From NCBI GenBank assembly GCA_001938485.1, contig MQRK01234477.1, positions 24,465 through 76,149 on the forward strand: a DNA stretch of 51,685 nt, written 5' to 3'. Positions within the stretch are counted from its first letter, which is position 1, and every line of letters begins with the position of its first letter. A program made the position numbers and the translations under genes. The notes under the pieces were generated by a model, which was given only the letters and a program-made list of their open reading frames with translations, had not been told where the DNA came from and did not search any database. Shown piece after piece: positions 4,008-47,569 of the stretch. Origin of the DNA: Girardia tigrina (taxonomy: Eukaryota).

Positions 4008-4655
4008 ATGAAAATAAATAAATGATTTTGAAATAGAAGAACTGGATCAGTAAAATAAACAATATAATTTTATTGAAGATAATAGTCAAAATAATTTAGA
4101 AGATCATGTTGATGATGCGATATTGAACGATGTTACCGATAAGTTACCAACAGAAAACGAAAATACCGATCGGAGAAATGATTCTGACAATGTTGACAAT
4201 TCAGAAGAAATCGAGAGTACTTAATCGCTATCGGGCAGATCGAAAAAATCTGAAGAATTACAGGATGATATTGTAAATATTTCTGAATTGGAAAATGAAG
4301 CAAATAAAGAGTTAGATCATGAAGTTTATTTAAATAGGATTCAGATTCTTTTTACGTGCTCGGTGATTTTGCTGGATTACCTGAAATCTTGGGAAAGGAA
4401 AGTTTTCCTGTGTCTTATCAAGAAAATTCCATGAAAGAACTTTGTTTGGAATTTGTCGATAATTTTAAAAGACAATATCGTCATTTATACGGTGACAGAT
4501 GGCCTCCTTTATTGAAACCGAAAAATGAATGTGAAATAAAGAAATTCGTCTGCTCAGATATAACTCCTACAAAGTATCCATGTCCAGTAGAAGACTACTG
4601 GGAAGGAGTAGAAATGCCTTCACGATTTCTATCACCAATGACAGCTATCAAATCG
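4008..4655 (+). pseudogene. DRC7: DRC7/CCDC135 (dynein regulatory complex subunit 7) N-terminal pseudogene fragment
   Basis: FPVSYQENS..ELCLEFVDNFKRQYRHLYGDRWPPLLKPKNECEIKKFVCSDITPT matches the recalled DRC7 N-terminal block (SY..N...E..L....DNF.RQY.HL..DR.PL.L.P.NEC.V.KFV). The upstream acidic region has two in-frame TAA codons and a frameshift; truncated near 4655. Confidence 0.8.
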
Positions 4656-6292: not shown

Positions 6293-6408
6293 CTGTGCTT
6301 TCAATCCATGTTTTATAGTTAATATAATCTGTTTTAATTTTCAAATTTTGTGTTTCTTTTAAATATTTCATGCGACGTTCAACCTTCAATTTCTCTTTCG
6401 TAAATTCT
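6293..6408 (-). CDS. Cav1-like exon 7 (start of I-II linker, AID region)
   Basis: 116 bp, [38 protein letters not shown], donor GTAAAT. Confidence 0.85.
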
Positions 6409-9400
6409 CTAGAAAAATATTTTAAAAATTTTGTACATAGACGAATAACTGTTTTCAATTATCACCATAGTTAAAAATAATTATCATAAATATAAAATTA
6501 AGCAAAATTATAACGACTAAATTATAGTTTCCGAACGTCATTCTGATAACAGCTTCTAATTATGCATATCAATATGTTTTTGGTATCCAGAAAAAACAAA
6601 CAGTAGTATTTGAGTCAATTTGCACAGTCCAATTACTTGATATGAGAGTTGCCATGAATTCCAGACAGAGTACAGCATATTGTTGGTAATAATAATTTTT
6701 ATTTTAATAATAGAGTTTAAGTTTCGTTCATCCCACGTTCGTTCATGTCCCGTTCGTTCGTACCACGCTCATTCATCCTGTGTTCATTCGTCCAGATTTT
6801 TTTATATAAAATGCTTTAACGTAATAAATGTGAGTCAAAGGAAATTGGGGTATACGTACTTATATGTGCGTAATTGACATCTTGACATCGGATTATGACA
6901 TCAAGCAAATAATTAACATATGATTTTACGTAAACTAAAATGTCAAAAGCCAAGCAATAGATTACAACAGTCTTTACGTAAACGATAATATAAATAATTG
7001 CGGGGAACTAAAATGTATATAAACTCGTTAGGAAACTAAAAAGTATCACTAGGCGGGAAATACATGGATTTTGTTTTTGGTTGCAGTAAAAGAGGAAAAC
7101 AAACTTTGCTATACAAAGGCCAGGTATATTGGTAATAGAGGAAAAACAAAAGCGGAACAATTGTTTTGGATGTAGTAAATTCCAAAGTTTTAAATATAAA
7201 GTGTTACTTGTATTATCAGGTGCTCGTGTTCTCAGTAACTCTTTGCCTGAACACACACACAACAGCAATAACTCAACAAGAAAAGCAATTGGGAAATGAA
7301 AAAATGCAAGATTTTGCGAATACTCCTGTTATTGGTCAAGCTAAAATTGAGCGTCAACTACCAGATCACGTTTTAACAGCTCTGCAAAAAGAACTCTTAT
7401 TGCGCGAAAATAAAAAACCCCGAGCGCTTGCAAATTACAACTCAAGATAATATGTTTGATATTCCTGAGCAATATCGAGTTATGATATTATTTGATTCTG
7501 TACATAGTAATGTGTAGTAAGTACTTTCATTTTAATCAAAGTTTTTTGTGCAAAATAAATGAAATAGGCCTGAATATCATATGTGAGCAGAACAATGAAG
7601 TACTTATTTATATACATTCAATGAATGCTTTAGCCTTTGTCTCGCCTGACAACGTTCCAGAATCATTTGATATATTATCAGAGGCTAAACCAAATTATGA
7701 ACAGTTAGATGAACTTTTAACATTCTTCGAACACACATATGTTGGAGGAAGAAGGCTTGTAGATAAAGCTCATGGATCAACTTTTCATCACATTAGAGTC
7801 TGAAATACGCATACGATAGGTTTAGATGTTATAGCTCGTACAAATAATGAGTTCGAAGGGTGTATTTACGGTTTGCAGACACTTTTTCACTGCACCTTTT
7901 AGACGGTCTAAGAGGTGACATGACTAAACAGAAAACAACATTTCTACAGGTAAATCCAGATATTATACATCCAACAAAAAACTGTATCGCTAAATTAATG
8001 AACAAGTGCAGCGTATATATGAATATTTACAAGACCAAAAATCTATCAAATGAAATAAAAACCTCATATCAAAAAATAAAAACCATTTTTGATGGTGAAT
8101 TTTTTTCAGTAACTGAATTCATGATAGATGTAATTTACCATTATAAAATAAATAATTACAGTCTAACATGTTTTTATGCGGTCCTATTTTTGGTGCACTC
8201 CTAAAATGAATAATTGTAAGCAAAAGAAGTGAAAAGTAAGACAATTACATTAGAAACTAAAAAACGCATAAAAAAGACCGTTCAAAAACAAGTTTGAATG
8301 TAAATTAAATTCAGATGGTTTTACCAGATGAAATAGCGGAGTTTAGTAAAAAAAGATATAAAGAGTAAAGTTGGTAAATTGTGAGGTTTTGGATATAAAC
8401 AATGTAATGATGTTATTAGTATGACCCAATTAGTATTTTTTAAAAAGTATTGTTGAAAAATAGTATCGCTGAAGAGATTAATTACATCGACCCTTTTGTC
8501 GATAGAACTAAATACTTTAAAGCGATTTGCATTGTCGATTACGAAGATCTGTTGTGCCAAGATGATGATACATCAATTAAGAACCTTAAAGATGAATAAT
8601 GCCATGCAGATTGTTGTTATGACTGCGAAGTTTATAAGGATCAAAGAATTGAATCATTTTAATGTTACAATTATGGTAACCAATTTTAATAATTTATAAG
8701 TTTTCAAAGTTTTTATAAATTTAGAACAGCCAAGCAGTCATTTTTGATCACATGGAAAATTATAACCGCATTCATTTAAGACAATAATTCAGCTCGACTT
8801 GATTTTTCACACTCCTATTCACATTCTTAAAATCTAGTAAAATTATAAAAATTCACAAAATTCAAGTCAATCGGAAGTATTGTCTTAAAATGGACGAGTT
8901 TTAAAATTGTCATTCGGTCATAAATAACTAAAAATTCATAAAAGAATAAACTAACCCACACAAAACACCAATTATAAGATTTAATACAAAATAAGATCCA
9001 ATAAGAACCAGAGAAATATAATAAATCCATGGCCATGTATTTCCATAAATATTATTTGTCTGAAATGAAAATTAATTAAAACACGAACTTTAATAATAAT
9101 AATCAATTAAAACCGCTAACTGATGAAGTTTTTTCTGAAAAAAACTTTATTTTAGTAAGACATATGTCAGGGGTTGCAAAGATTTTCAATATTGTGATTG
9201 ACTTTTTACTTTATAACCCTCTGTGATCAACATATTTTAATTTATATATTTTATTATTATTAATAACACAAATTAGATTTTCAATACATTTATTGATATC
9301 ACAATTTGAATTGCCACTAGGACGATTCTCCACAAAACTTTTGTAACTAGTCATCGTTCTTGATTGATAAATTTAATTTTATTTCTAAACGCTTTATTAT

Positions 9401-10482: not shown

Positions 10483-13400
10483 TTGAAGAAACCTCAACTG
10501 GCTGAAGTAAATTATCTTTCTAAAAACCATGTGGTAACATATATTGGCTATTGTTCAAATGAAAAGTAGATAGTTTCCCCACTACCTTTCCCGTATATAG
10601 AATTACTAACTACAATCAAAGAAATTCCAACAGCACTTCTAGTTCGAAAAATGTACGTTAAACTTATTTAAAAATTATTTTCAATGAATAATTTATTTTA
10701 TTTTATCTTTACAAATATTTAATTAGTCGAATGAAACTTGAATTGTTAATATAGCAGACAATGGTATTTGGTATTCATTTTCGTGTTCTTAAGACAATAT
10801 GTACTTATTTCATTTTGATACACAGATTTGAATTCAACAATTACCCAATACATAACATCTGTCCATCCCTGTCTGGTAATTATCTGGAAAACTGTTAGAA
10901 TTGCAAATCCCATGTGATCGAAATTTGTAATCCCATAATTAGGACCAGGATATTTAGTAACTTGTGAATTATTTACTTCATAAAGACAAATCCATTCTTG
11001 GCCGTCTATCAAAGGAGGAACTTTATCACAAGTGTACGATGATGCAATAGTTGGATCCATGCTACACGGAACAGGCTTTGACGTCATTTGATAAGTAACA
11101 TTACTGTAACATGTTGTTTGAAATATTCCCATGAACAAATTTATGCCAATGATAGCAAAGATTATTATAACAAATAAAACTAATACACCAATATCAGCCA
11201 AAGGTCTCATGGCAATTAAGATTGAATTCAAAACAAGTTGAAGACCTTAAAATACATACATATAAATAATTGTAGAGTAAAAATTACTAGGGAGCCTCGA
11301 AACCAGTCGAAGTGGCCTTAAAACTCGGAAAGCTCGTATAGCCTTGACATCTATTTTACTTTGATTTAAACTTGTTAATATGATTGTGAGAAATCTAAAA
11401 TAAATTAATAAAATAAGTAAAGTTGGAAAAGATTTATCAATAATTAGAATAATTTGATTATTAAATCAGATACAATATTAATTTCATTTTTCAAAGCTAG
11501 GTTACTTGAGTGTATGCTATTCCAGTTTATATACCTTACAATCATTAGCATGTGACAATTTTTATTTTCATATGTTTAGATATCTAATAAGGAATTTTTA
11601 ACTTATCTGAGTTGTCTACCAAGCAATTGAGCATGAAACCTATCAGCTTGGAGTACATGATTGTGGGGACACACATAATGTTAGTTGCCTTGATATCGTT
11701 TTCGTTATTCGAAGTCAAATTCAGTTTTATAAGCACAAATTTTAATTTTTATTTCAAACAAATTCAAGTAAATTTTTCAACTTTCTTTTAATAATCATTT
11801 TGCGAAAATTTATCTTAACAATCCAATTCTGATAAAATTTCTTAAAACTGAAACTTAAAAATAATATCTAAATCAATTAAAATTTATTCTAAAATAAATA
11901 CACATTTTAAAAATAAACAATTCTGGGCAAGATAATTAAAGTCTTTTTCCATTCTTTTAAATAGCTTACTTTCTATATACATGGATTTCTTTAGGTGGTC
12001 CATATTTATATATCCATCTATCCAGCAATATTTTCCGTAGCGTGTTCTCGTCTTGGTGGGCTACTGCTCTCAGACTAATATATCGGCTAAATTGATCAAT
12101 TATCGCTAAAATATTCTGGTATCCATTAACATTTCTCTTGAATGGACCACAAATGTCTATATATATATTTTCTGAAAAAGTTCCTCTGTGGATTGCTTAA
12201 TATGTCTTTCTTTGGTTTTTGCAGTAAGTGTTTTTCACTTTTGACAATTTATACAACTTTGAACAACTTCTTTTATCTTTTCCCTCATATTTTCGATGTC
12301 AAAATCATCTCTGATGTAGTTAAAAATCTTTTTTGCTCCCGTCATGACATAACATCTTATGCATATCTTCAATAAAATAAGTTCTTTTATTTTTCGGGAT
12401 CCAGTACTTATTATTTTCCGTTGCTACAATGTCATCTTTCAGTTTCCATCTCTTTGTTCTTCTTTGTTTCAAATCTTCCTTTATTTGTTCGATTTCTTCA
12501 TTGTCATTCTGCCATTTGAAACTATATGGTTTCTCGTGTAATGCCAGAATTAGCATTTTAATCTTTCCTTTCTTCGCTTCTTCATATGTTGTTTGACATT
12601 GACTACATAATTTGCCTTTCCTGTATTCCATTCTCATATCAATACCGCTGAGAAAATTTATCCATGTTTGAAATTGCGTTGTTATTGGATTCTTTGTGGT
12701 CATCATAAAGGTAATAGCTTTGTAATCTGTTCGCAACAGGAATCTTTTTTCATATAAGAAATGCTTAAAATGCTAAGTGAAATACTAGATTGCAAGTAAT
12801 TCTTTTCTGATAATGCAATAACTAAGTTCATGTTTATTCATCTTATGAAAACCATATGCAATAACTCTTTCTCTTGCACTCGAGTCTTTCTTACAGTACT
12901 GCTCCAATCGTATCGAAACTTTCATTTGTGTCCAATATGAATTCTTTATCGAAGTCTGAATATGCCAAGATTGGAGTTTGAACCACTCTTTCTTTTAATC
13001 TTTGAAAAGCTACGTCACATTCTTTTGACCATATTATTGGGTTGTTGCATAAGTTCCCGCCGTTACATGAAACTATTTGTTCTACAAAGACTTTTTGATG
13101 TTTGACGAAGGGTTATATACCATTAGAAAGCCCGTACTATGCTCTATAAGATTAAAGTAATCGTTTTTGCCTATATAATTTTTTTGACTTTTTTAAGAAC
13201 CGTCAAATGAATTGTCAAGTCGACAAAAAATCGCATTTTCGACACTTCCTTCTTTTCGCCTTTAATCTAGGTCAAAAAGCGAGTGAAGTTACCAGAGATA
13301 TTTGTACCGTGTATGGAGAGGACGCTATAGCTGAGAGAACTGCTCGGGATTGGTTTGCCAAGTTCAAACACGATAATTTTCACCTCAACGACGCTCCTCA

Positions 13401-16400
13401 TTCCGGAAGACCAGTCGAGATGGACGAAGACCAACTCAGGGATCTTTTGAAGGAAGACGGCCTCCTGAGGTGCAGAGAATTGGTCGAAAAGATGAATTGT
13501 GATTTTGCGAAAATTTCACGCCATCTTCAGTCGATGGGTTTCACTCAAAAGCTCGGAGCCTGGGTTCCGCACGAACTCACCCAAAAACAGAAGGATAAGC
13601 GGCTTTTCATTGCTGCTCAAAATCTCGCTCGACACCAAGGAACCCATGGCCACAGGCAACGTTTCTTATACAGAATCGTCACTGGAGACGAGAAATGGTG
13701 TCTCTATATGAATATGAAGCAAAGGAAAGAGTTGGTGAGTCCTGGAGAGAAGCCTAAGCCCAGGATCAAGAAAGATCTGCACCCGATGAAGACAATGATT
13801 TGCGTATGGGGGGATTGGGAAGGTCTAATCCACTGGGAAATGCTTGGAAAGAACATGACAGTAGAAAAGAATCTCTATAAAGCCCAATTGCTGCGAGTCA
13901 ATGAGGCAATTCAACAAAAAAGACCGGATCGACAAGACCAGGTGATCCTCCTCCATGACAATGCTCGACCACACACCGAAAAAACTGTCAAGATGGCACT
14001 CCAAGAACTCGGTTGGGAGGTCCTTCAACATCCTCTCTATTCCCCAGACCTCGACCCGACGGATTACCATCTCTTCCGCTGCCTTTCAAATAAAATGAGA
14101 GATCTTAGCTTGGAAAATCAGAATCATCTTGAGAATTAACTCAACAACTTCTTCGAGACTCGACCTAAGGATTTCTGGAGAAATGGAATCAACAAACTGG
14201 TGGAAAGATGGGAAGAAGTAGTGAACAATGAAGGAGAGTACATAATTATTATTTGTTATTATTTTTGCTGTTAAAATTTTATGATTTTATTAAATATATA
14301 ATTAACTTAGTCATTATTTTGGTTGTTAAAATTCTTTGATTTCTTTGAAAATAAACGTTTAAAAAACGGTGGAAACTTATGCAACAACCCAATATTTTCT
14401 TATCGTTGTTTTTACTACACATGCTTTCTAAAACTTATAAATATCTTGCATAATCTTTTATGAATTTACTGTAATAATTTGTTAAACCTAAGAAACTCCT
14501 TAAATATTTAATACATGATGGGTTTTGAAACTTGTTAATCGCATCAATTTTTGTGTTATCTGTTTCTATGACCTCTTTACTTATTACGTATTCCAAAAAC
14601 TTGGTCTTTTCTACTAGAAATTGACATTTCTCTGAGCTTATCTTTAAACCTGATTCTTTGATTTTTCGAAACACGTTCTTTATTCTTTGTAGATGTTCTT
14701 TCTTATCTTTAAAAAATATTAAAATATCGTCTAGATATACAACTGCTTCCTTACAATTCCATTGCCCCAGAATTTTCACCATTAGTTCTTGAAAGGTGCC
14801 CGGAAGGCATTCTTTTAAAACAATATTGACCATTCTTTGTCGAGAATGCCGTTTTAATCTTTGATTCTTCATCAAGTTCAACTTGATAGAATGCGTTTCC
14901 AAAGTCAATTGTACTGAAACACTTTGCTCCGTTTAATGTATTCAACATATCATCCACATTTGGCATAGGGAATGCAGGTCTGAGAGTAACTTTATTTAAT
15001 TGTCGAAAATCCATGCACACTCATATTTCTTGTTTCTCTTTCTTCCATACCAATGGAAAGTTCCATGGTGAACTACATATTTTGATTATATCATGTTCTT
15101 CATTCGTCTATTTTTTCATCAAAGTGCCTTGGTTGTCTAGACGGCTTTACTAATACCGGTTCACCATTAGTTTCTATTTGTGTTTCGTCAATGATGTTTT
15201 TCTAATATCCCATTTATCTACCATATCGACTTAAACTCCTTTATCATGTTCATCAACTAGTCATCGATTTTTCCACTGTATAGTTCCGTTATCCTTTTCA
15301 ATCTGTCTTCATCGAATCGGCTATGTCTTATCATAAATACATCACTATTTTGTATTGATTTCTTAATCAGCTTTATCTCAAAATTATCCAAAACTTCCAC
15401 TCCTGGTATCATTTCCGGGTCCATTCCTTTGACAACATAAAATTTTACAATATTTTGGTTCCCTTGAATTTTAATCTTCAAGAGTACTGTTCCATAATTT
15501 ATTAATTCCGAAGTATTTGCGCATGCTAAACGTCTTCGCGATTCTTTAATCTTAATATTTGGTATGTTTTTAATTAAACTTGCTTCAATCACATTTACTC
15601 TAGCACCGATGTCTAAAAGACTTCTCTATCTTTGATGTAAAAATCTATACTTGGTCTACCATCCAGTTTGTCATATTTAATGTTAAGCTTTGTTATTTTT
15701 AAAATTTCTTCATTCTTCGTTTTGTTTCTCATTTGTTCCATTTTACTACTAAAACAGTTTTCTTCACATTCTTCTTTCCAACAATCTAATTTACAAACTT
15801 CGAGGGGGTTATTTCCAGTAATACAATTACATATACAATCATACTTAATTTCATCACTTAATGAAGCACATTGATCACCTCTCCTTGCGATCGTGCCTCT
15901 TGGTTTCCCTGATTCTTTTCATACATTTTTCTCTTATCTGGGAACACCCTTTTGGGAACAACCTTTCCTTGATTTGATCTAGTCTCTTCGTATTCGCTGT
16001 CGTCATAGTATTCATCAATTTCCGCAACTGGACTTCGTCGATTTCGAGGTTTTTACGGTATCTTAGATTATTTGCTTTCCTTCAATCGTTGTTTCTACTG
16101 TACTGTTCTCTTTCCTTAAATCTATTCTTGTTGAGATAACATTGAGTTCTATAATGGTCTTTTCTGTTGCAGTGAGTAACTTCACATTCGGGCAGTCTCT
16201 TCTTATGTGGCCTTCTTCTTGACATGCATAGCATTTTACAGTTCTGTAATAAATGTTTTTTGGTTTGAATCCATTATTTCCTTGGTTCCTACTGTTGTGT
16301 TCGAAATGTCTTTTCGGGGTTCTTTTTTTGTGTACAACTTTGCGTCTACTTACCGAGATCAAATTATCTTGTTTATTTACTGTCGTATATGCTGCCACTG

Positions 16401-19400
16401 TTTCCTCACTTTCCGTTTTACGTAGTTCTTACATATTGGTAACTACGCTTTTTATATTTTTGGTTTCAGTTGTTCCTCTTAGTTTTGATTCTTTTTTGAT
16501 TTCATACCTATCAACCATACTTATACAGGCAATGTTGAGTAGTTCTTTTTTATACAATGTTTCTTTTGTTAGTATTATTAAGAACACCAATTTGATTTTT
16601 CATATTTTTATTAACACAACAATTTTGATTGTCTTTAAGACAATCTTTGTCAAAGCTTTCGTACGAGTGCATTCTAACTAAATTGATTAATGACTTTAAT
16701 CTTATTATTTTTAGGAAATGGTGATACAAATAATTTTTTAAAATATTTACTCAAAACTTATTGGATAAAAATTTAAATGATTATTAATTATTTTAAAAAT
16801 ATTAATTCGATTTATTGATTAAAAGTTGTAAATAAAATTAATTAACATATTTAAAATTTTACAATTATTTTAAATTAGAAATTAATTTAAACATTACATA
16901 TTTTTAGATAATAAGAATTAAAATATTAATCATCCATCTCGCTAGGAGAGACACAATTCCAAATCAACATACAACATTCAAACACAAAACATCAAACATT
17001 TAAAATATTCCTCACATCCCCCTCGATTTAAATGGCTTTAGCCATTCAACATTTCTAATAAAAATTCTTCCATCTTCAAGTTGTAACTCATAGCTTCTTT
17101 CATGATTTCTTTTCCCCAATGTTGCGGTACCCATGTAACGGTCATCTTCTTTAGAGACATTTTCCTTCTTAATCAATACTTTGTCTCCGACTTCGAAAAT
17201 TCTTCTAGTCTCTATTTTTTGTTCAACTGCTTTCAAATTTTTGTTATCTTCGTGATTATTTTTCCACCCTTGTCTCAGTTTTTTTCCAAATACTATATCG
17301 GCCGGTGACATATCTGACGTGGCTTGTATAGTATTATCTAACATAAAACTCGACTTCTGATAAGACTTCGGTCCAATCTTTATGATCTCCATCTTTCATT
17401 CTAATATTCAAAGCATCTCTGATCGTGTGAAACTGACTTTCCACCATCCCATTTGTATTATGATGATATGGACTCTAATAGAATACCTCAACTTGAATTT
17501 TTTTCGCCATGTCCTTGAACAAGGCCGATTTAAATGTTTTTCCTCTGTCTACGTGGATTTCTTTTGGTGGTCCCAATTTCCATATCCATCTATCCATTAA
17601 AAATTTTCTAACTGTTTTTTTCATCTTGACTAGCCGCTGCATTCAGGCTAATATATCTACTAAACTGGTCAATTATTGCAAATATATATTGACATCCATT
17701 TATATTTCTTTTGAATGGTCCACAAAAATCAATATATATTTTCTGGAAAGGTTCATTCGCTAATTGCTTTATATGCTTTTCTTTCGTTTTGGTTGTTAGA
17801 ATCTTCCTTTTCTGACAATTTATGCAACTTTGAACAATTTCTTTTATAAAGCCTCTCATATTTTCCATGTTTAAATCATCTCGCAGGTAGTTATGGGCCT
17901 TTTTACTACTTCCATGACACAACAATTTGTGCATTTCTTCAATAAAATTTTTCCTCTGCCTTTGGGATCCAGTATTTATTATCTTGATTTATTTCTTTGT
18001 ATAATTTTTTATACAGAAAACTATTGTTCACTTAAAGTTGACAATTAAAATTTCTTTCACTGTATTAAAGGAATTTAGATAGAATTTTGAAAGTATTACT
18101 TGCTGGAGCGACCGTTTAAAAAGTGGTCCTTCAGTGAGAAAAGGAAATTATTGGAGAAAATATATATTGGTTCGTACCAGAAAGAGTGAGAATGATGTTA
18201 TATTTCTATGTTTGTGATCTGTAAAAGCGGAAATTACTTGTGCAGTATATAGTAACATATAAAGAGTAAAAATATGTAATAGTTAAAAAATATTGACAGA
18301 AAATATTTATTGAATACTTGTTTGAATATTGGTTGATTTATTTGTCTGTATGATGGCGGTAAATCGAAAAAATTTTCGTTTCTATACCTTCTCCCGTTAT
18401 TCACTCGGCATAACGGGAAGTGAAATTTATCAGGAAATTATCTCTGTTCATGGTGCTGACAGTGTTGGAGAATCTACAGTGTATCGGTGTATAACTGAAT
18501 TTGACAATGGCAAGACTTCTTTTGCTTGGGAAAACTGCAGGAGAAAATCAACAAAAACAACCCTTGAAAACATTCTGTTGGTCTCTGGAATTATTAACGC
18601 CAATGGTGCAGTGACCATTGACGAAATTGATGATGAGACATCCCTCAGCCATGGAATCATTCAGCGTATTGTGAGTGACCATTTGGGATTTCGGTCTGTT
18701 GCTGTAAGTGGGATCCTCATGCATTGTGAAATGATCAAAAGGTTAATCGTGTCACTACTGCAAAGGAATGGTTTAAAATTTTGAAAAGCATATTGTGATG
18801 GTGGATGAGAATTGGTTTTACATGAGAACTGTTGGCAAGAAAAGAAGCAACCGTTGCTGGGTTTCCCCTGATGGTGATCACAGTGAACCCATTCATGTCA
18901 TGAAACGTAGTCAGTTTGACAAAAAAATCATGCCTGTCATCGCAGTGTCCTTGACTGGCAAATATCATTGCGAACTGCTGCAGGAGAGAGAAAGCATGAA
19001 TAGCGAGCGTTATGTCACTTTTCTTGTTAATATGGAGAAGAAGTTTAGTCGACATGTGTTTCCACTCAACTGGAGAAACATGATTTTCGTGCAAGACAAC
19101 GCGAGGCCTCATGTTTCCAAAGTCCATGTTTCTCGCAAACAAGAATGCTACCTTGCTCCGTCAATCACCATATTCCCCTGATTATAACATCTTGGATCGC
19201 TTTATTCACCCTTACTTGGAAGATCAGCGACACAAAACCAATTTTCAATCTGCAGATGAGTTACATCAATTCATTACATCAGAACTGAAAAATATTTCTG
19301 CTGATCAATGGTCACCTGAGATGGGAAAACTGATACAATGCCTCTCTAATGTTATAAAGAAGAATGGTGATTATGAATTAATGTATTACACAAGGTTGTT

Positions 19401-22400
19401 TTTTTACATTGCTCGTTAAAAATGATATTGACATTTCAAAAGTCTCATTCTTTCTGGTATGAACTAATATAAAATAAATAAAGTATTTTTAATATAAACA
19501 CGAAAATATTGTTGATTAGGTAGATCAATTAAGCATTATCAATTTTTGATATTATTCTTCTTCATTCACTCGATATGTCTTTGCTCTTACTACAAAAAAA
19601 GATTGGCGTACCTTAAATATAAAAATTCACTGAATTAATACTTCTCAGATTATTCTTTTGTGGTCACTTATTATACATACATTGACGTTTTGAAGATCAG
19701 AGCATTTTCAAAACCATAAGTAATTACGGATGAGTGAATAAAAATGGTTGATTTATTTTATTGATTTAGTTATTAAATATAACTTATAAGATTATCAAAT
19801 TGATTTAAATAGTTATCGTAAATTGTTAATAAAATAACTGATTCAATTATTTAACATATGATGTAAAATTGTTTTCTTTTTCTTTTCCGTTAATATTTTA
19901 AACTAAAGTATTCATTTGTAACTCTTATTTAATGTTTCCACATTATCAAAATAGATTTCCAAATAAATATATGGAAATTAAATATTGGTACGAAATAATT
20001 AAACATCATTAATCAAGTTTATTCAAATTAGAATTTAGTTAAGTTTTAAAGTTTGAGAAATTAGAAAATGTTTGATAATCCTCCTTCCTGTACGGTAATG
20101 TTATTATAAGCCAAATGGGTTTATTTGAGCCGATGAAAATGCGTTGAAATTATGTTCTAAATAATACAAAGAAAACTTAATAGTTTATGAGAACGTTGTT
20201 TTTTCATAGTTCAGAGATGTCTGGCAATGAGCACAAATGATATTTTTTCCAGACAACAATTTATTAGTCGATCAAAAATTCAATAGATATGTTAAGATGT
20301 TTGTGAGTGTGAGGAATATTTTAAATTTGGTATGTTGAAATTGGTTTGTTGAATTTTGTATGTTGAGTTTAGTATTTGTTAATGTGTTTCTCCCACCCAG
20401 ATGGAAAATTGTTGTTTTGGATGTTCACGATAGATAATTATTCGAGTATAATTTTCATTTTAAAGTACAGCATAAGATATGTAAAAACATTAAAAATATA
20501 AAATCTTTTCAAATTTTCATATTAAAATGTAAATAAAGTAAATAGTTTTAACTAAGTTTTGAATTAAATAAATGTTCTTTCTTTCGATAAAATAATTTTT
20601 AAATAAAATTAATATGTAAATAAAATTATTACTAAAATTACAAATTTGAACTTTAAAAATAAAATCTGAAAATAATAAAAAAATTGTTCGAATAATTGTT
20701 TAACTAAAAGTTATCAATTTAGAACGATGTCGAATTACGAGAGTTTTGCTGAGAGTTGTCCAAAAGACAATTCTGATTGTATTGAAAATAAAAGTTCGAA
20801 AACCCATGTCGGTGTTCTTAATAGTGAATTTGATGTATTATATGATGTATAATATGGTGCAAAGTATGTTATCTCTTCCAATCAGGGATCAACTGTGCGG
20901 CCAGTGGGCATACTTCTACGTAGTATCCCTGAGTAACTAGAGATCTCGGTCTCTAGGCTAAAGTGTCCAAGAGCTAGTCGATTATTGCGGAACAGCCGGC
21001 AATAGATCGTATTCAGAAATGGGCCAGCAATCCATTCCCTAGGCTAAGCTTTACAATCTGGGTGTGAAGGCTGTGGGGAGTAGTGACCCCGCTGTCGATG
21101 GTTGGATTGCATCTTAATGATCTGGGATGAATCAATCCCGTTGAAGGGTGTCATAATGACGTCGTTGCATCTTCGGACAGGCGGAACAAAGGCATGGATC
21201 CCAACATTGGGGGAGTGCCCGTTGAGAACCATCAGCGTCCCAGGTCTCCTATAAAGCATCAGGCTTAATACCGGAAAGCAGTAGAGGTGCATCTCTTCCA
21301 AAAATAATTGACAAACTATAATTTTAAAATTTAACGAATTCAAAGTAATTTGATTGCACTGATACGATTTGATTTAATTAAAATATGCTAAATTAAATTG
21401 TCGATAAATTTAAATTGTATCATTAAATTCGTATCTTAACATTCAATAATTTTGAGAAAATCTCAGTAACTTCTATCGGATATATAATACGATTATTTTA
21501 TACAAATACTAATTTTTCATAATTAGACCATAAATATTAAATAGAAACCATTAATCATCAATAAATATCATAAAATACATACATTAAATTTTACCTATAT
21601 TAACAGTTACAAACTAATCTTACCCCAAAGCAACCACACTGAAATCTAAAATATTCCAAAAACTTCTCAGATACGATTTGGGATGAAGAACGAATCCATA
21701 AATGATGATCTTCATTATGCATTCGATTAGAAAGATCGCCAGAAAATATGGTTCAGACAATTCCTATTATCCAAGAAATACGACATTTCAAAATTTAAAA
21801 TTGCAAAAAGAATTTAAAAATGTACTATAAATTATAAAATTTAATAATAAATAAATACAGTTCAGTCAATCACTATAATCCAATAGTGATACAACATCAT
21901 TTAAAACTTTAAAAACCAAAAATATTAACAAAAACTTAAAATAAAATAAACAAAAAATAAAAAAAATAAAATAAGCATTAAAAAAAAACAAGATATAAAA
22001 TGCTATAAGAAAGTTTGCAGGAAAATATGATTGAAATAAATTCAAATCATTCGATAGCGATACGACTCTGATCGATCACTAACCAGCTTCTCATTGAGAC
22101 TATTTGAGTCATTATTCGAATACATTGTCGTCAAGGACAACACGATACAATTGGCGAATATCGCCAACATGATCACACTCTCAAATATTCTATATTGATC
22201 GATATATAAACGATTATCGCTCCTAATTAGACTCGTATCACTAATTACTTGGATTCCACAATTATCCTAATAAATTTCCTAAACCGATTGTGTTTTTTTA
22301 AACAAAACAACGATCGATCCGGTTTATTCCACGGACACAAAGCGGGTTTTTTCGATGAAAATTCATCATTGATATCGTAACTAAGAAAGGAACTAATGAA

Positions 22401-22424
22401 AACGGTTTTTTTCCGAGAATTCAT
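6293..22424 (-). CDS. Cav1: Voltage-gated calcium channel alpha1 subunit, Cav1 (L-type)-like, N-terminus and domain I (spliced)
   Basis: Seven GT-AG exons join in frame: 22249-22424, 22084-22189, 21624-21763, 11288-11394, 10845-11245, 8956-9059, 6293-6408. Motifs IFANCIVL (S1), [12 protein letters not shown] (S3), [18 protein letters not shown] (Cav1-type S4), [18 protein letters not shown] (pore), [23 protein letters not shown] (S6) and an AID-like Y..WI. Confidence 0.92.
6715..8030 (+). mobile_element. Degenerate Mutator-like (MULE) transposon
   Basis: Subterminal tandem TTCGTTCA-like units at about 6720-6795; transposase C-terminal motifs [37 protein letters not shown] with stops. Confidence 0.75.
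8956..9059 (-). CDS. Cav1-like exon 6 (IS6)
   Basis: 104 bp, [41 protein letters not shown] acceptor and GTTAG donor. Confidence 0.92.
9258..9670 (-). mobile_element. Solo Gypsy LTR (413 bp) in a Cav1 intron
   Basis: Homologous to the other LTRs at both ends (T[A]TGAGGAATATT ... GTGTTATTAATA); ATTAT on both flanks (5-bp TSD). Confidence 0.8.
9911..10434. other. Assembly gap flanked by (TA)n; other gaps near 23413, 40168, 43122 and 49685
   Basis: Runs of N. Confidence 0.99.
10845..11245 (-). CDS. Cav1-like exon 5 (IS5 and pore loop)
   Basis: [40 protein letters not shown]...[34 protein letters not shown]; overlaps ORF 10746-11231. Confidence 0.95.
11288..11394 (-). CDS. Cav1-like exon 4 (IS4 voltage sensor)
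   Basis: [35 protein letters not shown]; TTTTAG acceptor; 42-bp intron follows. Confidence 0.92.
13037..14392 (+). mobile_element. Full-length mariner (DD34D) element nested in Gypsy pol
   Basis: 28-bp TIRs TTGGGTTGTTGCATAAGTT(C/T)C(C)(G/A)CCGTT with 2 mismatches and a TA TSD; the Gypsy frame resumes across the insertion. Confidence 0.97.
13207..14250 (+). pseudogene. Mariner transposase with one premature stop near the C-terminus
   Basis: [34 protein letters not shown]; TAA at 14137-14139, after which the frame continues [34 protein letters not shown]. Confidence 0.92.
16576..17016 (-). mobile_element. 3' LTR (441 bp) of a Gypsy element
   Basis: On minus it follows the polypurine tract GAGGGGGA, starts TGTGAGGAATATTTTAAA and ends GGTGTTCTTAATA. 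Confidence 0.9.
17012..17990 (-). mobile_element. Gypsy integrase remnant attached to the 3' LTR
   Basis: HHCC zinc motif MHKLLCHG...CINCQKRK, core IYIDFCGPF...IIDQFSRY, C-terminus [14 protein letters not shown]. Confidence 0.9.
18167..19467 (+). mobile_element. Mariner-like element with frameshifted transposase
   Basis: TIRs TTGGTTCGTACCAGAAAGAGTGAGA / TCTCATTCTTTCTGGTATGAACTAA with TA flanks; motifs [25 protein letters not shown] spread over three ORFs. Confidence 0.92.
20308..20823 (+). mobile_element. Solo Gypsy LTR (516 bp)
   Basis: TGTGAGG...GTTCTTAATA; flanks GTGAG / GTGAA (5-bp TSD, 1 mismatch); highly similar to 38182-38709 and 50664-51029. Confidence 0.93.
20885..21300 (+). mobile_element. 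GC-richer remnant, probably the C-terminal region of an R2/NeSL-like non-LTR retrotransposon
   Basis: Abrupt rise in GC; broken peptides [33 protein letters not shown] resemble the region before the zinc knuckle in RLE-type elements (recalled). Confidence 0.35.
21624..21763 (-). CDS. Cav1-like exon 3 (IS2-IS3)
   Basis: 140 bp, [47 protein letters not shown], donor GTAAG. Confidence 0.92.
22084..22189 (-). CDS. Cav1-like exon 2 (IS1)
   Basis: 106 bp, [39 protein letters not shown] flanks. Confidence 0.9.
22249..22424 (-). CDS. Cav1-like exon 1 (start codon and pre-S1 helix)
   Basis: MNSRKK...[25 protein letters not shown]; donor GTAATT; 59-bp intron follows. An upstream exon cannot be excluded. 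Confidence 0.8.
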
Positions 22425-23639: not shown

Positions 23640-25990
23640 GTTAAGAACAAAGATAGTCCAAAGAATCAATGGTGCCACTCTATACTTATCTGATATCTGG
23701 GTATATACAAAAGATCAGCTGCAACACCATATTGTTTCGAATCATGTTTTAGATAATATTAGAAAAGCAGGATTGCTGCTGAACCCAGAAAAATGTTAAT
23801 TTTTGAAATGGATAATCAAATTCTTAAGACATGTAGTCAACGAAGACGGTGTTAAAATGGACCCATCCAAGATTGAATCAATAAAAACTTTTGGGAAGCC
23901 AATATGTGAAAAAACTTACGCAGATTTTTGGGCATTTAAAACTATTATCTGCTATTTATAAAAGAGTATGCAAAGAAAGCTAGATTATTAGAACAATTAT
24001 GCGGGCTGAATAATAATAAAAAACTTAACTTGACAAACAAGCTAGAGTTAGCATTCGAAGAGATGAAAAATGCATTAATGACAAGCCGGTATTCTGTTTC
24101 CCAGACTTTTAAAGAGATTTTATTCTAGATACGGATACTAGTTTCGACACAATTTGAGCCTTATTAGCATAGAAAGACGGTCAAGGAAAGGAAAGAGTTG
24201 TAGTTTATGGATAGCGATCAATGAATATCTCCGATTGTTATTGTGTGTCAAGAAAGGAATTACTGGTCATGTATTATTTCTGTAACCATTTTAAACATTT
24301 TTTGTATCATAAACGGTTTATTTTGGGTACCGACCATAAAACAATCACATATATGCTGAACAATAAGAAGCCGATTGCATCGCAGTTTCGAACGTTGATT
24401 AACAATCTTAGCAGTCTGGATATGAAGTTAGAATTTCGAAAAGATTCTTTGCACACGAATGCTGATATGCTGTCAAGGATGAATTGCGATACGTGTACTC
24501 AATGTTTGATGCAACACGAGGAAGCCAAGAAAGATAAAATCAAGACAGGTACACTGGAGGTTTTATCAGAAGATGAAACCTTAAAGTCGTTTGAAGATAT
24601 CATCCGGTTGTTGGCACACGTTGGTGCAAGAAAAGTTGAGCATTATTTAAGAGACTCTAAGGAGTTTGACAAGCTGAAGGGTAAGATCAAAGAGATTGTA
24701 TGCAGATGTGAATCATGCCAAAACTATAAAACATATACAGCCAGAACAAAAGAGAGCACGATAAAATTGGAAGCTCCCGATGTTTTTGAATGTATTTATA
24801 TGGATATTTGTAGACCGTTGAAAAAGACTGTTTGGGAAACGAAATATATTCTAGGCATCATTGATCAGTTCAGTAAATATATTACTTTAATAGCAGTATT
24901 GAAACATGATGATCAGTCGATAATAAAAGGAATAATGAGAAATGGGATACTGAAATTTGAATCTCCAAAGGCGATGAATGTGTATTGTTTTAAGGTTTTT
25001 GAGTCAAAAAAAGATGAGAGTTCGCGGAGAAACATAATTTTGAAATTCGATTATCCAGCTCACATCATCATAACACAAACGAACAAATTGAACGACAATT
25101 CCGTACAGTGAGAGAATTGAAAATGCAATATTGCATGAAAGAAGAAGTTCGGACTTGGTAGATATTCTACCAGAGATCGATTTCTCATTTAAATGCCACA
25201 TTACAAACGTCTTTCAGGTTGAGTCCGCCTGAAATCATTTTCAGGATATGCGCCAGTAGGGGGAAATGGGATTGAAGAAATAGCAAACATTTCAATATAA
25301 GTCGGACCAGGAGACCATTACGCGAAGGCAATTTTTTCCAGGAGATGAAGTATTGGTAAAAGTAGAATCTAGAACAAAAGATCAAGGGAAATACAACTGG
25401 CCATTCATAAAGTACATGATAGAAGATATGTTCTTGAAGATATGTCTAGCGAAACATGTGAAAGAAATGTGGAGAAAATTTTAAAATTCTCGCGGGTGTT
25501 ATTGTTAATTTTTTAATTTTCGAAAATAGGAATTTCGTTTTTTTAATTTCGCATTATAATCAAAATATAATTAAAAAAGGAAAATAAAAAACATGAAAAT
25601 TTGTTTAAATAACAAATTTCACCTTATATATTTTTTAATAAATTTTGAAAGTATTGATTTATATTTTAATTTACAATGGAAGTGAATTCCCAACTTAATA
25701 TTGTGAATGAACAATTATATTAAATATGTAACTTAGAAGCCAAATTCGGTCACAAAGTGATAAATGAGGAACGATTCAAAAGATTTAAAGAGTTCATGTG
25801 CATTGCAGATAAACAAAAAATTGTCGATATAGTAAAAAAACATCAATTATTTTTTATTACGGCTAAATTTGACGTTAGGTGTACAACATTTATAAAACAT
25901 AGAATTAACACGACAAGACCTTAACCTTAGGCCACCTTAGACCTTGAGGAAAAGATTGAAAAGGTTACAAAGTCGTTAGAACAACATAAT
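23640..25990 (+). mobile_element. Degenerate Gypsy pol (RT end, RNase H, integrase) plus a separate pre-RT fragment
   Basis: RKELLVMYYFCNHFKHFLY..FILGTDHK, NADMLSR, CRCESCQ, IYMDICRP, IIDQFSKY, end RNVEKILKF near 25490; fragment FIKHRINT..LEEKIEK at about 25860-25990. Confidence 0.88.
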
Positions 25991-26353: not shown

Positions 26354-29300
26354 CAGACCCGTACCCAGCAGGGGGACTTGGGGGGGTTAAGCCCTTAAAT
26401 GAGATCAAGCCTTTACTCAAGCCTCCTCATTGGAAATAGTACATAGAGTATTAACCTATAGTAGTTGTATACATTCATTAAACAAATACAAACCAAGTAT
26501 AAGTCTTTTATGTTGAGAAAAGGAAGGATATATTACAGTACCGGTATGTATAATTTAATTGAAGCAATCTGATTTTAATTATGGTAATGATTTATAATGA
26601 GTTTATTATTGTTTTATACTCATATATTAGCGCGCAACTTGTTGATTTACTTTTTCCGAAGTAGCTTTATGAAATGGTAAGTATCTTTCATGGTAACATA
26701 TATAAGCTATACACTGTCATACTGACGGAATGCATATATTAGCAGTTAATCAGATTTTTAAAAAAGGGTTCTCAAATACAATGCAGTTTTTTAACTACTG
26801 ACTTAAATGCATGTTACTTTATGAAAATTTCCAAACTATTGTTTTTTACGTAACTTACACTTTTCTTAGAAAGTAAAGAATTCTTCTTTTCTAGGAAACA
26901 CTTGCTCGTCTAAACGATCTGGGTGATCATGAACCTTCTCAGCCTAAAAAGCAACCTTCTGACTCAATTTGGAAATCAAAAGCGAGGCTTCAAAAGCCAG
27001 TGGTACCGAAACAGGCCGTGACTTGAATACTCACAATCAGCTGATGCAACTTTCTGCTTCCCTTGTCGAAAATTTGCATCCTCCATCAATTCAAATGGAA
27101 CATTTCGTGATTTAACTTTCATTACCAATGGCTTTCGCTAGTGGAAAACTGCTGTTGAAAAGGATAGAGGATTTATATTAGCACGAAAATTCTCAGATGC
27201 ATATTCGTGCTATCACAACTTGGTTAGAGCGAAAGAAAATAATCGAAACTGGGACATCTGTGGATAGACAACTAATCGCTCACCAATAAGAGAAGAATCG
27301 ATATTACCTACATAACGTTTTTGATTGTATCAAATTCTTGGTTACCAATGAACTTGCTTTTCGAGGTTATGAAGAGAATCAACAGAGCTTTCCAGTTGGC
27401 AAATTCCTTAATCTCTTTCAGTTCATGATGGAAATGTATGCCAAACTGAAAGAAATAACTCCAACGATACCCGCAAATGCTTCCTATTTATCACCTGAAA
27501 TTCAAAATGAGATGATCTCAATTTTGCCACCCTCGTACAGAAAGCAATTGTTTGCGAGACTGAAGAAGTCATAATGGAAGTGTGTCTCAATATTTTGTGA
27601 TGTTCCAGAGACAGAAACAAAATTGAACTATTGGTTTTGGCAATGCGTTATTTTAAAGAAACCCCAAAGGAGCGTTTGCTTACCTTTGTCAATATTTCAT
27701 CACTGGATGCAAATTCTATTGCTCATTCAATCTTGAATAATTTAAAGAGAGACTGAACTGATTTCCACAATACCGTCAAATGAACTAGCATCTTTAAGAA
27801 TAATTTCACAGTGCTTCGATGGCGCCAGTGTTATGACAGGAAAGTATGGTGGTGTACAACAAAAGTTGCAAAAGCTTCTAGGGTATAAGATCCCATACAT
27901 TCTCTGTTTTAACCACCAGTTGCACTTTGTGATCGTTCATATTTTATCTTTTGACAAGCAAATCTGCAATTATTTTGAAATTGCCAATGTTATTTATAAT
28001 TTTACTCAGCACTACAAAGTTTCATCCGCTTACACAGGAGACTCACTTAAAAGATTACTCGAACACCCTTGGACTGGACATTTCGCGACCACGGCAGGGA
28101 TAATCAAGAATTATGAGGAAATCAAAGAAGCTCTTCACGAAGTCAAAAAAAAGTAATGACTTCGATTCAGACCTGGTAGTTTAAAGCTGGTGGTTTGTTG
28201 TCTCAAATTAAACCACCAGAGTTCATTGTTACAGCACACATTATCAAAATAATATTGGATATTATTCAACCAGCACATTTTTTTTCTTCAATGCAGCCAA
28301 TGTAACATTTTATCAGCTGTTAAACTCATTGATAGTGTACAGAAATCACTTTCTGATATTCGCAATGACGAGAATTATGAATTATTGCTTCAAGGAGTCG
28401 AAAACATTATTGATATACTTAACAATGAACCAAAAGTGAAAAGGAAGCGTCTTGAATACAGGAAGTAAATAATTAGCTTAGGACTTGTATTCTATGATAA
28501 TTACATTATTTGCATTCCATCTCTCTTCAGACTTGCAGATAGCGTCATCATGTTTCCTATTGGATCATCGGATATGTCAGGTTTAAGTACACTTAAACAA
28601 CGTTTACGAGTTCTTTATCTTTCTGCAATTGATTCTGCCATGTGAGAGCTAGAAAACGATTTTCTGAGCGAGAAGGATTACAGGTAAGTACTTGTTATGT
28701 TTGTATTATAAACCTCAACTAGCAATACAAAACATACGTATTTTGCTTTATCAATGTGATGGATTAAAAGTACATTATTGCCAGTGAGAGATATCAAAAC
28801 ATTTTTAATCCAGATGCATAATAGTCGTTGTAAATATTTATCAATGGGTCTTTATCGTTTCACACTATTCTCTCAGGTAATAAATTCAATGCGACGTCTT
28901 ATTCCTCCCATGGATCCCAGTGCAGTCAGGTCAATCAGCGAGGTAGCTGGTAAAGATGTTGAAAAGGTTGTAAATGAAATGAAAGTTGCAGAAAAACTCT
29001 TTTTGGACAATGAACAACTAGAGGTTATGCAATCTGATCAAAGTCTGTTGAAATCATATACAAAGCTTCGAATTTGGCATGAGACTTTCCCTACTTTGTC
29101 ACAGACAATGACTGCTCCTCTCACGTTTGGTTTCTTTACCCTTTCGAGAATCCAGTTGCCCTACAGAATGTCAATGAAATGTGACAGACTCTTCAACCTA
29201 ACGCTACTTGGCTATGAAAAACAACTTGTGACTGGCATAACATTTGAAGCTTTTATAAATATGTTTTTAAAAACTTCTCGAAGATTGTGACTGTAAATTC

Positions 29301-29641: not shown

Positions 29642-29836
29642 TATGTTTACTATGTTTTACTTGTATTATCATTTTTTTCAATAATTAATAGAATTACTTG
29701 GTCAACAGCAGAGAAATAATAATAACTTAATATATAACCCTCTTATCTATTAACGACTATATTAATATGCTTGTTAAATGTCATTATAAATTGATAGTGT
29801 AAATCAATTATCAATAACATTTAATTATTTATTAAA

Positions 29837-32506
29837 ATGGGTTTTCTAAATTACATTATAGAAGTATTCCAAACGAATTTTCCCTTGCGTTCTCCTTCGA
29901 CATCACCCGTTAGTAGAAAAACAAAAAAAATCCACACTAAACCATCGAATGAATATAAAAACCAATTACTGCTAAAAAAAAGTTTCATAATTAGAAAAAA
30001 AGTTATTAAAAATTTTTTTAAATGTGGAAAAAATGGAATCCACAATACTCGAAATGCCAAAGTCAAATTTCAGAATTATTTTATGTTGGATAATAATAAC
30101 GAAGGCGTCATTAATAAATATGGAGATAAAGTAAATTTTGAGAGAAGAACAAATAAAATATCGAGTTTGAAGAAAACCAACGAAAAGTTTAATGTAAACT
30201 TTCAGGAAAATTCTAACATCAAAGACAATTTGATGATGAAAGACGTCGGCGGTTCTGAGAGGAAAGGCAAACTTACGGCGTCGAATATCGGAAGCTTCAA
30301 TCCGATGACGATGAAAGATAAAATAGCGTCTAAAAGTACAGATTTAGACACAGAAAATGTAAAGAAATTACCGATATCTGATGTGAAAAATAAAGTTCCG
30401 AAGTTAGGCGAAAAAAAGTTAAATCTTGATGTCAAACAGATGGGTCAATCGGATTTTAAAAATAAAATGTCTAAAAGCAAAGAGTCGATTTTGAAAACTA
30501 CAGAAACAGAAAATTTGAGTAAAATATCGAAATCCGAATTGAATAATAAAATCAGTTCGATGGAAAAGGGAAATAGTGTGGTGCCGGGAGTCAAAACCAG
30601 TATTCACGAATCTCTGAATACGAATGAAACGAAAAATCAAGTGTCAGCTTTTGAAGATTTGGAATTACAAACACAAACATCTAGTTTCAGTTTTTCCGGT
30701 GAAACAACTGAAGAAATACAATATAAACCACACTTTTTTATGAGTACTTTGCCGGAAACTACAGAAACCACATTTAAAGAAAAGGTTTCAGATAAAGGAA
30801 AGAAATCAACTGAAAAAAAGAAAAAGAAGGAACCAATTAGTGATTCTTTATCATTGAACACTCTTGATATCCAAAACAACGAGAAAGATAAATTATTTCC
30901 GAGTTCAATTAAAAATATCGAATTACAAGAATCATCAAATGAATCCAGTATTTCTACTTCGGCGAATGAAACTTCCAAAGACACTAAATCTAGTGAATCA
31001 ATGCAATTTCTACTCACCAATAGCTCACCAAGTAGCATTAGTACTTCTTCTGAAATATTAACAAAACAGTCGAGTAATTTATATAACTCCCAAGAATCAC
31101 AAAAAGAAACTAAGGGAGAATTGAAAAAAGAAGCTAAACAAGAACTAACACAAGAATTTAAAAACGAAACTAAACTTGAATCGAAAAAAGAGACGAAAGA
31201 ATCGAAAAAAGAAACTAAAGAATCGAAAAAAGAAACTAAAGAATCGAAAAAAGAAACTGAAAAAGAACTAAAACCAGAATCGAAAAAAGATGCTAAACAA
31301 GAATTAAAACCAGAATCGAAAAAAGAAACTAAAGAATCGAAAAAAGAAGCTAAACAAGAACTAAAACCAGAATCAAAAAAAGATGCTCAACAAGAATTAA
31401 AACCAGAATCGAAAAAAGAAACTAAAGAATCGAAAAAAGAAGCTAAACAAGAATTAAAATTAGAATCGAAAAAAGAAAATAAACCCAAAGATAAAAATCA
31501 AGCGACAAATATAAAGTTAGGTAAACCAGAAAAAGAAACAAAAGACAAAAGTAAATCTAACACTAAATTAGATGGGGATGATAGTAAAAAAAAATCTCTG
31601 AAGAAAGAATTAGGTTCACAAAATCCGATTAATAATGATCCAAATACTATCGAAAATGTCACTTCTACAAAAGTTAAAAATTTGACATTAAAAAAAGAGA
31701 CCGAAAACTCTAAGGAACCTATTGCGGACATTGGAAAGAGTTCAATAAAAGATAAAAAGTCAAAGGATAAAAGTATTTTTAGCAATAAAAGTGTCAAGTC
31801 TGATAAAATTTCAAAGAAAAAGAACGATGAAAAGGCAAATCTAAAAAGTGTAACAGAGACCTCCAGTAGCATTGAAGTTACCAATGACAAAGACAAACTG
31901 ACAAATAAAAACAAAGATTCTAAAACAAGTATTACAACAATGGATTCAAAAGCAAAATCTCTTCCAGTGTCCAATCAAACGAGCCCCAGCAAAAGTGTAA
32001 TAGCAGAAAATAGTATTTCCAAAGTCAGTGAAAGTATTCAAACGACCGCATTAGGAGGACAATCAAAAACGAATAATGGAGAATCAAATATTGAAACAGC
32101 AACGCGTAATCATAAACCCGACATGGATGGTAAGCAGTGTGATGAACTGTCAGACTTGTTTATCAACAACCGAGAGGACTTACGAAACATAAGTCTTGGG
32201 ATGCATTGTCGAATTTGTGAATCGATATTCGATTGTTGTTGTAATTGTGGTTGTTTGATGGATGAAAACCGAATACCAGTTTTTTCTTCTCTTAAATGTA
32301 GATCTATTTCCAAAACCAAATGCTGCCGACCTTTGAAACAAAATCGACAAAAGAGTATCTGTAAACCGAAACTGTCTTGGGAATGTAAGCGCCCTTTTTA
32401 CTCATCAAATTCTTCAGATAGTTTAACCCTTTCATACAATTGCATTGTTGGGGATGAAATTTGCGATAATTACTGTCCACAACGAATGATTTGTATTTCT
32501 AGATAA
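29837..32506 (+). CDS. Intronless 889-aa Lys/Glu/Ser-rich protein with ESKK repeats and a Cys-rich C-terminus; function unknown
   Basis: Uninterrupted 2670-bp ORF in AT-rich DNA; AAAATGG start context; ATTAAA about 20 bp after the stop; no TE motifs. Confidence 0.85.
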   Translation: MGFLNYIIEVFQTNFPLRSPSTSPVSRKTKKIHTKPSNEYKNQLLLKKSFIIRKKVIKNFFKCGKNGIHNTRNAKVKFQNYFMLDNNNEGVINKYGDKVNFERRTNKISSLKKTNEKFNVNFQENSNIKDNLMMKDVGGSERKGKLTASNIGSFNPMTMKDKIASKSTDLDTENVKKLPISDVKNKVPKLGEKKLNLDVKQMGQSDFKNKMSKSKESILKTTETENLSKISKSELNNKISSMEKGNSVVPGVKTSIHESLNTNETKNQVSAFEDLELQTQTSSFSFSGETTEEIQYKPHFFMSTLPETTETTFKEKVSDKGKKSTEKKKKKEPISDSLSLNTLDIQNNEKDKLFPSSIKNIELQESSNESSISTSANETSKDTKSSESMQFLLTNSSPSSISTSSEILTKQSSNLYNSQESQKETKGELKKEAKQELTQEFKNETKLESKKETKESKKETKESKKETKESKKETEKELKPESKKDAKQELKPESKKETKESKKEAKQELKPESKKDAQQELKPESKKETKESKKEAKQELKLESKKENKPKDKNQATNIKLGKPEKETKDKSKSNTKLDGDDSKKKSLKKELGSQNPINNDPNTIENVTSTKVKNLTLKKETENSKEPIADIGKSSIKDKKSKDKSIFSNKSVKSDKISKKKNDEKANLKSVTETSSSIEVTNDKDKLTNKNKDSKTSITTMDSKAKSLPVSNQTSPSKSVIAENSISKVSESIQTTALGGQSKTNNGESNIETATRNHKPDMDGKQCDELSDLFINNREDLRNISLGMHCRICESIFDCCCNCGCLMDENRIPVFSSLKCRSISKTKCCRPLKQNRQKSICKPKLSWECKRPFYSSNSSDSLTLSYNCIVGDEICDNYCPQRMICISR
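31094..31483 (+). repeat. Coding tandem repeat of 21-bp (ESKKETK) and 36-bp (ESKK[D/E]AKQELKP) units
   Basis: Repeated GAATCGAAAAAAGAAACTAAA and GAATCGAAAAAAGATGCTAAACAAGAATTAAAACCA; all units are multiples of 3. Confidence 0.95.
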
Positions 32507-47161: not shown

Positions 47162-47480
47162 CTTTCACCAATTCAATAAAGGCTTCTTCCACATTTTCCG
47201 CGTTTAAGGCTGATGTTTCAACATACTTCATGTCATTTTGCCCTGTAAAACATTATTATGTATACATTTATGTAAAGATTACATTGGCATACTGGCATAT
47301 AATTCCGCTTCTTCTGTGGTAACTTCTTGTTTCTTTAGGTCAGATTTGTTACCTACTAGAATTATTTTTGCATTTGGCATGTGGTCGTGCATGCATTGGA
47401 GCCAGCGGTTAAGGTTTGTAAATGAATTTCTTTTGGCTAGGTCAAAAACCAATAAGCCTCCCATTCCATTACGATAATAC
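47162..47480 (-). CDS. Rab-family small GTPase, two internal exons (47293-47480, 47162-47242)
   Basis: YYRNGMGGLLVFDL, IILVGNKSDL (G4), YVETSALNAENVEEAF (G5); 50-bp GT-AG intron in phase. G1-G3 exons and the prenylation motif were not located. Confidence 0.88.
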
Positions 47481-47569
47481 CTATAAGAACAAGATAATAA
47501 CGATAATAATAATAACGGTAAGAAGAAACAACAAGAAAAGATACAATAAAAAAGTTTAGAATTATCGTC

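Follow-up and report, generated by a model that had tools for sequence, protein, structure and literature searches.

A divergent planarian Cav1A duplicate with a remodelled selectivity filter and a predicted loss of calcium selectivity

The window analysed here, a stretch of 51,685 nucleotides from the planarian Girardia tigrina (G000:C234477:24465-76149), contains seven exons of a gene that is, judged by its descent and its spliced contigs, a real and expressed variant of the L-type calcium channel, with a strongly remodelled pore and a function that is predicted. Of the five acidic residues by which Ca2+ is usually selected, the deduced protein has lost three. The model we favour, with about an even chance of being right, is that an expressed duplicate of Cav1A would have lost Ca2+ selectivity and would pass Na+ and K+ in a voltage-gated manner. 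The broader proposition that the channel is unable to select Ca2+, which also covers the case of a voltage sensor, is quite probably correct.

Read as the reverse complement, positions 10863-10877 of the window give ACC AGA CAG GGA TGG on the minus strand and encode TRQGW. A first-pass annotation had proposed that glutamine here replaces the filter glutamate of domain I and that arginine precedes it, and both the genome codons and the protein alignment bear this out. Within a redundant set of 270 fetched proteins, 265 of which span the filter position, glutamate is found in 261, glutamine in none and another residue in four (K, A, S, D); arginine at the residue before the filter occurs in 3/265. 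An unnamed protein of 284 aa (P0136), a Cav1-like fragment, has lysine at the domain I filter position, which may be an error. The same annotation had suggested a comparison with paralogs: the other domain I pore exons found in the genome (six contigs, five distinct sequences) all encode glutamate. A protein search with the domain I exon returned no orthologue among the best 120 of 261 matches (best identity 53%), and glutamine at the filter was absent from the 150 representatives listed of 2898; each is a weak negative result.

The glutamine codon was next compared with assembled contigs. Those of runs X1 and X2 show no difference to the domain I pore exon and leave CAG unchanged, in line with the codon check that the annotation had named, and rule out an assembly error; a single exon copy with 100% identity was found. 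A-to-I editing is unable to turn CAG or CAA into a glutamate codon, and RNA editing back to glutamate is ruled out by the codons kept in the spliced contigs. An alternative exon encoding glutamate, hidden in the gap of Ns 3′ of exon 5, is contradicted by contigs that splice exon 5 directly to exon 6, with room left for a minor isoform. Runs X8 and X9, from two other organisms (C and D), contain sequences that are ~97% identical, and no difference is listed for them at the domain I filter. One further difference per run, close to an exon end, is unlisted; since the filter codon lies 24-26 nt from the end, conservation of the glutamine in both organisms is likely rather than certain. Runs X15 and X16 (organisms F and G) showed no exon cover at 80% likeness, from which absence does not follow.

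The seven exons within the window have GT-AG ends and share one open frame, as had been claimed for them. The closest database relatives of exon 5 are L-type channels, and the beta-subunit binding motif in the I-II linker has altered flanks around its retained core. Intron 3 contains a mariner transposase (13156-14136, plus strand), and broken pieces of a Ty3/gypsy-type reverse transcriptase and integrase lie at 12000-19400, in the same intron, and at 24215-25108, upstream of the channel. Also upstream, on the strand opposite to the channel, an 893-codon frame (29825-32503, plus strand) encodes a protein rich in Lys, Glu and Ser, with short repeats, a Cys-rich end and no Pfam match. An exon of a Ras/Rab-family small GTPase is present at 47282-47572 (minus strand).

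Table 1. Location of the channel exons, filter codons and related loci. Plain ranges are window positions; other entries are contig positions.
Feature	Location	Strand	Remark
Exon 1, from likely start ATG, N-terminus	22249..22424	-	resembles residues 35-85 of Dugesia japonica Cav1A
Exon 2, IS1	22084..22189	-	
Exon 3, IS2-IS3	21624..21763	-	end matches loose end of spliced contigs
Intron 3	11395..21623	-	with a mariner transposase and remains of Ty3/gypsy-type retrotransposons
Exon 4, IS4 voltage sensor	11288..11394	-	basic residues kept
Exon 5, IS5-turret-pore loop, 401 nt	10845..11245	-	Pfam Ion_trans E 5.6e-18
Arg codon AGA directly before filter Gln	10872-10874	-	
Domain I filter codon CAG, Gln replacing Glu	10869..10871	-	genome and spliced contigs
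Exon 6, IS6	8956..9059	-	spliced straight onto exon 5 in contigs
Exon 7, I-II linker	6293..6408	-	Tyr/Trp/Ile core of beta-subunit binding motif
Domain II filter Glu	G000:C234477 13460-13458		outside window, same contig
Leu (TTA) replacing domain II beacon Asp	G000:C234477 13457-13455		genome only
IIIS1-S3 exons	C233329		probable
Domain III pore, Gln codon CAA	C241605 14170-14168		genome and spliced contig
Domain IV filter Glu	C223667 17420-17418		putative link to the gene
IQ exon	C254860		probable; the remaining one of 3 such exons, in matching phase
Nav2-like channel pieces	G000:C251730:10420-16309; C211151:9217-9420 (L127); C221837:4083-4568 (L128)		

The remainder of the gene was traced outside the window. 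A genome search with a domain III pore yielded three loci: two are canonical Cav1, and the divergent third, on C241605, has glutamine at the filter and tyrosine in place of a conserved tryptophan. Domains I and III are joined by a 5031-nt contig of run X1 (depth 9.99), a record recognised by its identical length and depth in the two comparisons. In this contig the domain I exons occupy 4013-4521 and the domain III exons 1586-2095, with no difference to either; both introns are skipped, and the 1917 nt between the two sets of exons fit the spacing of a normal Cav1. A further 1585 nt lie beyond, and the loose end of the contig matches the III-IV linker exon. Three Cav1-type IVS5 loci were found; two match the canonical paralogs and the third, on C223667, continues the frame of C241605 and keeps its glutamate, and domain IV was therefore tentatively assigned to it. 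A third set of IIIS1-S3 exons (C233329) and a third IQ exon (C254860) were attributed to the gene in a similar way, as probable parts. The domain III exon, too, gave no orthologue candidate in a protein search, a weak negative.

In all, 26 exons were traced, encoding 1278 aa without a stop and with GT-AG sites, a coding sequence that lacks ~740 nt of middle exons. The S4 segments of domains I, II and IV retain their basic residues. A search of the genome assembly did not recover the IIIS4 exon; its last 10 codons, with three Arg and one Lys, were read from the loose end of a contig. The EF-hand region is 72% identical to that of Cav1A. The domain I exon is at least partly present in 13 of the 16 listed runs, and in all four runs compared one contig lacks the 42-nt intron before exon 5 and extends into exons 3 and 6. 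Such contigs represent spliced transcripts, since the intron is skipped and exons 3 and 6 are joined; expression is thus deduced from splicing, none of the runs being recorded as RNA. The spliced contigs and the open frame with its GT-AG sites also counter the pseudogene that the annotation had named as the outcome opposed to its reading.

Assembled over the four domains, the filter ring reads Q/E/Q/E and the beacon aspartate of domain II is lost, with domain II taken from the genome only and domain IV attached through a putative link. The annotation had pointed to the filters of domains II to IV, and these read glutamate without the beacon, glutamine and, through the putative link, glutamate, respectively. 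The pair Glu-Asp at the domain II filter is present in 29/29 other aligned rows with residues there; the channel studied has Glu-Leu. The changes in domains I and III are the same isosteric replacement of Glu by Gln, each by a single G-to-C base. Four residues past the filter, domains I to IV have D, V, E and K, and Cav1A has Q, E, G and E. An EEEE ring and the domain II aspartate have been described as invariant determinants of Ca2+ selectivity in animal Cav1 and Cav2 (PMC4436565; PMC10120453), and neither of these two is intact here. The lysine that marks Nav1- and NALCN-type filters in domain II or III is lacking as well (Glu in II, Gln in III).

By descent the protein is, as far as its sequence can tell, an L-type (Cav1) alpha1 subunit, in keeping with the identity first given to it. 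In a tree of 20 rows (11 of 31 aligned rows were dropped as redundant, partial or too distant) it is the sister of two triclad Cav1A sequences with 100/100 support, on a branch of 1.64 compared to 0.05-0.07 for the Cav1A tips. AU tests on 12 of these rows, weakened by the long branch and unusual composition, reject its grouping with Cav1A of its own genome (p 0.00016), with Cav1B (1e-5) and with Cav2 (0.0007). The exon encoding IS5 and the pore is undivided, as in Cav1A, and is split in Cav1B, which agrees independently with the tree. The gene is thus placed as a fast-evolving duplicate, sister of triclad Cav1A, alongside a canonical Cav1A and Cav1B. It is a third Cav1 of this genome and probably predates the divergence from D. 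japonica, as suggested by the rejected clade with its own Cav1A; a 2022 paper gives two Cav1 for D. japonica (PMC8980814). The D. japonica Cav1A itself (P0271, UniRef, 1812 aa) is a sister sequence, and the exon layout of the Girardia Cav1A matches that of the gene studied, but the D. japonica protein has four glutamates and the beacon aspartate and is 51% identical to the channel studied. In the domain I pore exon, D. japonica Cav1A and the canonical paralog on C190963 share 83% identity, which by itself points to a triclad flatworm as the host. Canonical Cav1A also has two alternative-looking exons for domain IV from pore to S6 (G000:C247319:31822-31977 and 27022-27141), which are possibly mutually exclusive in splicing.

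We propose that the loss of two of four ring charges and of the beacon would abolish high-affinity Ca2+ binding. With external Ca2+ bound weakly, there would be neither block of monovalent flow nor knock-on permeation of Ca2+, and on depolarisation the Ca2+-poor channel would open and let Na+ and K+ pass. Ca2+ entry would still be supplied by the canonical Cav1A and Cav1B. We infer the links to domain IV and the IQ motif, and also how the channel traffics, gates and conducts and that it associates with a beta subunit. The domain I glutamine, the domain III glutamine and the domain II leucine are three independent changes that point in one direction. For the cardiac channel Cav1.2, an E-to-Q substitution in repeat I is reported to shift the IC50 no more than twofold (PMC8184209), and a repeat III substitution to have the strongest effect on binding (PMC2230626). 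The glutamine in domain III and the lost beacon thus make a loss of Ca2+ selectivity much likelier than the domain I change would alone. The Cav1.1 mutant E1014K (repeat III) is described as losing Ca2+ current while conducting Na+, K+ and Cs+, E292Q is expected to behave like it, and low-affinity binding by a QEEE ring abolishes both Ca2+ flow and the Ca2+ block of monovalents (PMC8184209). Neutralising the beacon is likewise reported to render Cav channels permeable to Na+ (PMC10120453).

Several observations count against this monovalent cation channel. With 51% identity to Cav1A and a branch of 1.64, the filter changes could be part of a general drift, and the domain III Trp-to-Tyr change and the arginine before the domain I glutamine might obstruct the filter or make it collapse. 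The genome has Lys-bearing Nav-type channels and so already possesses a Na+ route. The natural channel with a repeat I E-to-Q change is reported to give just a slight outward Cs+ current (PMC8184209). Both readings offered by the first-pass annotation, altered selectivity or a poorly conducting sensor, still stand.

The second of these, a near-silent or non-conducting voltage sensor that would signal by coupling its conformation to a ryanodine receptor or by way of the beta subunit, convergent with teleost Cav1.1a, is in our judgement possible but doubtful. It would account for the retention of voltage sensors, beta-binding core and probable IQ motif while the pore is degraded, and the arginine before the domain I filter, the tyrosine that replaces tryptophan in domain III and the lysine four residues past the domain IV glutamate suggest a pore freed from conducting. 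However, two glutamates are kept and the swaps are isosteric, and the Asp (I) and Glu (III) four residues past each glutamine maintain an acidic mouth. Direct mechanical coupling to the ryanodine receptor is a trait of vertebrate skeletal muscle and is not known in flatworms. The dihydropyridine receptor of zebrafish slow muscle, the one described natural case of repeat I E-to-Q, is Ca2+ non-conducting (PMC8184209; PMC5330888), as a sensor would be, but Cav1.2 without the repeat I and III glutamates is reported to lose excitation-transcription coupling (PMC11017947). The opposite outcome, a useful Ca2+ entry route of lowered selectivity with Nav2-like passage of Ca2+ and Na+, appears improbable: Nav2 with a three-acid ring passes both ions (PMC10120453), the cardiac repeat I change is mild when alone (PMC8184209) and a probable IQ motif is retained, but here the ring acids are down to two, and the most important of them (III) is lost together with the beacon.

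The altered pore might also have no selected function at all: selection on a superfluous Cav1A copy would have relaxed, leaving it transcribed yet drifting to loss, which we consider unlikely. The long branch, the lack of an orthologue among the matches listed in protein searches and the high non-synonymous share among near relatives would all be expected. Of the 14 differences to X8 that are listed (of 20), nine are non-synonymous and five synonymous over 674/189 sites, a ratio of ~0.5 that is indistinguishable from neutral (~11/14 non-synonymous expected). Within domain I, however, six of the seven listed non-synonymous differences lie within the extracellular turret. The duplicate seems to predate the D. 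japonica split, yet its 26 exons are open with canonical splice sites; an open frame and intact splice sites despite the long branch are the stronger argument against decay.

Among other channels of the genome, a Nav-type channel has filter residues Asp (I), Glu (II), Glu (III) and probably Gly (IV), a Nav2-like pattern assembled over putative links between contigs. It occurs in the same genome as Lys-bearing Nav1-type loci (C226243), and a review describes Nav2 as appearing absent from flatworms (PMC6259924).

If the monovalent model holds, triclads would have evolved a voltage-gated monovalent-cation channel from an L-type channel without a lysine, a separate calcium-to-sodium route that we advance tentatively, at somewhat less than even chances. 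A natural L-type channel without three of the five acids is a direct test of models of Ca2+ versus Na+ selection. Planarian Cav1A and Cav1B have been linked to the action of praziquantel and to the polarity of regeneration (PMC4569474); RNAi is feasible in these animals, and a third planarian Cav1 is therefore directly testable. Our literature search found no report of a double-Gln ring, of a ring change combined with beacon loss or of a third planarian Cav1; the Chan 2017 channel inventory and its supplements could already include the gene.

Known channels share parts of this pore. The laboratory mutants Cav1.1 E1014K and Cav1.2 E363A/E1115A likewise lack the repeat III, or repeat I and III, carboxylates, but carry Lys or Ala and keep the beacon aspartate. 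One of the duplicate Cav3 genes of anthozoans has a neutralised beacon and is proposed to be Na+-permeable, and according to the same source no other animal Cav1/2/3 gene is known to lack the beacon aspartate (PMC10120453); that channel is T-type, with Asn at the beacon and an intact acidic ring, whereas the flatworm channel is a Cav1 with Leu and two glutamines. Zebrafish slow-muscle Cav1.1a is described as the sole innate dihydropyridine receptor with a distorted ring (PMC8184209). The flatworm channel may be an invertebrate counterpart of this non-conducting fish voltage sensor: the repeat I E-to-Q change is common to both and of independent origin, but the fish ring is QEEE, while the flatworm channel also has glutamine in domain III and is without the beacon aspartate.
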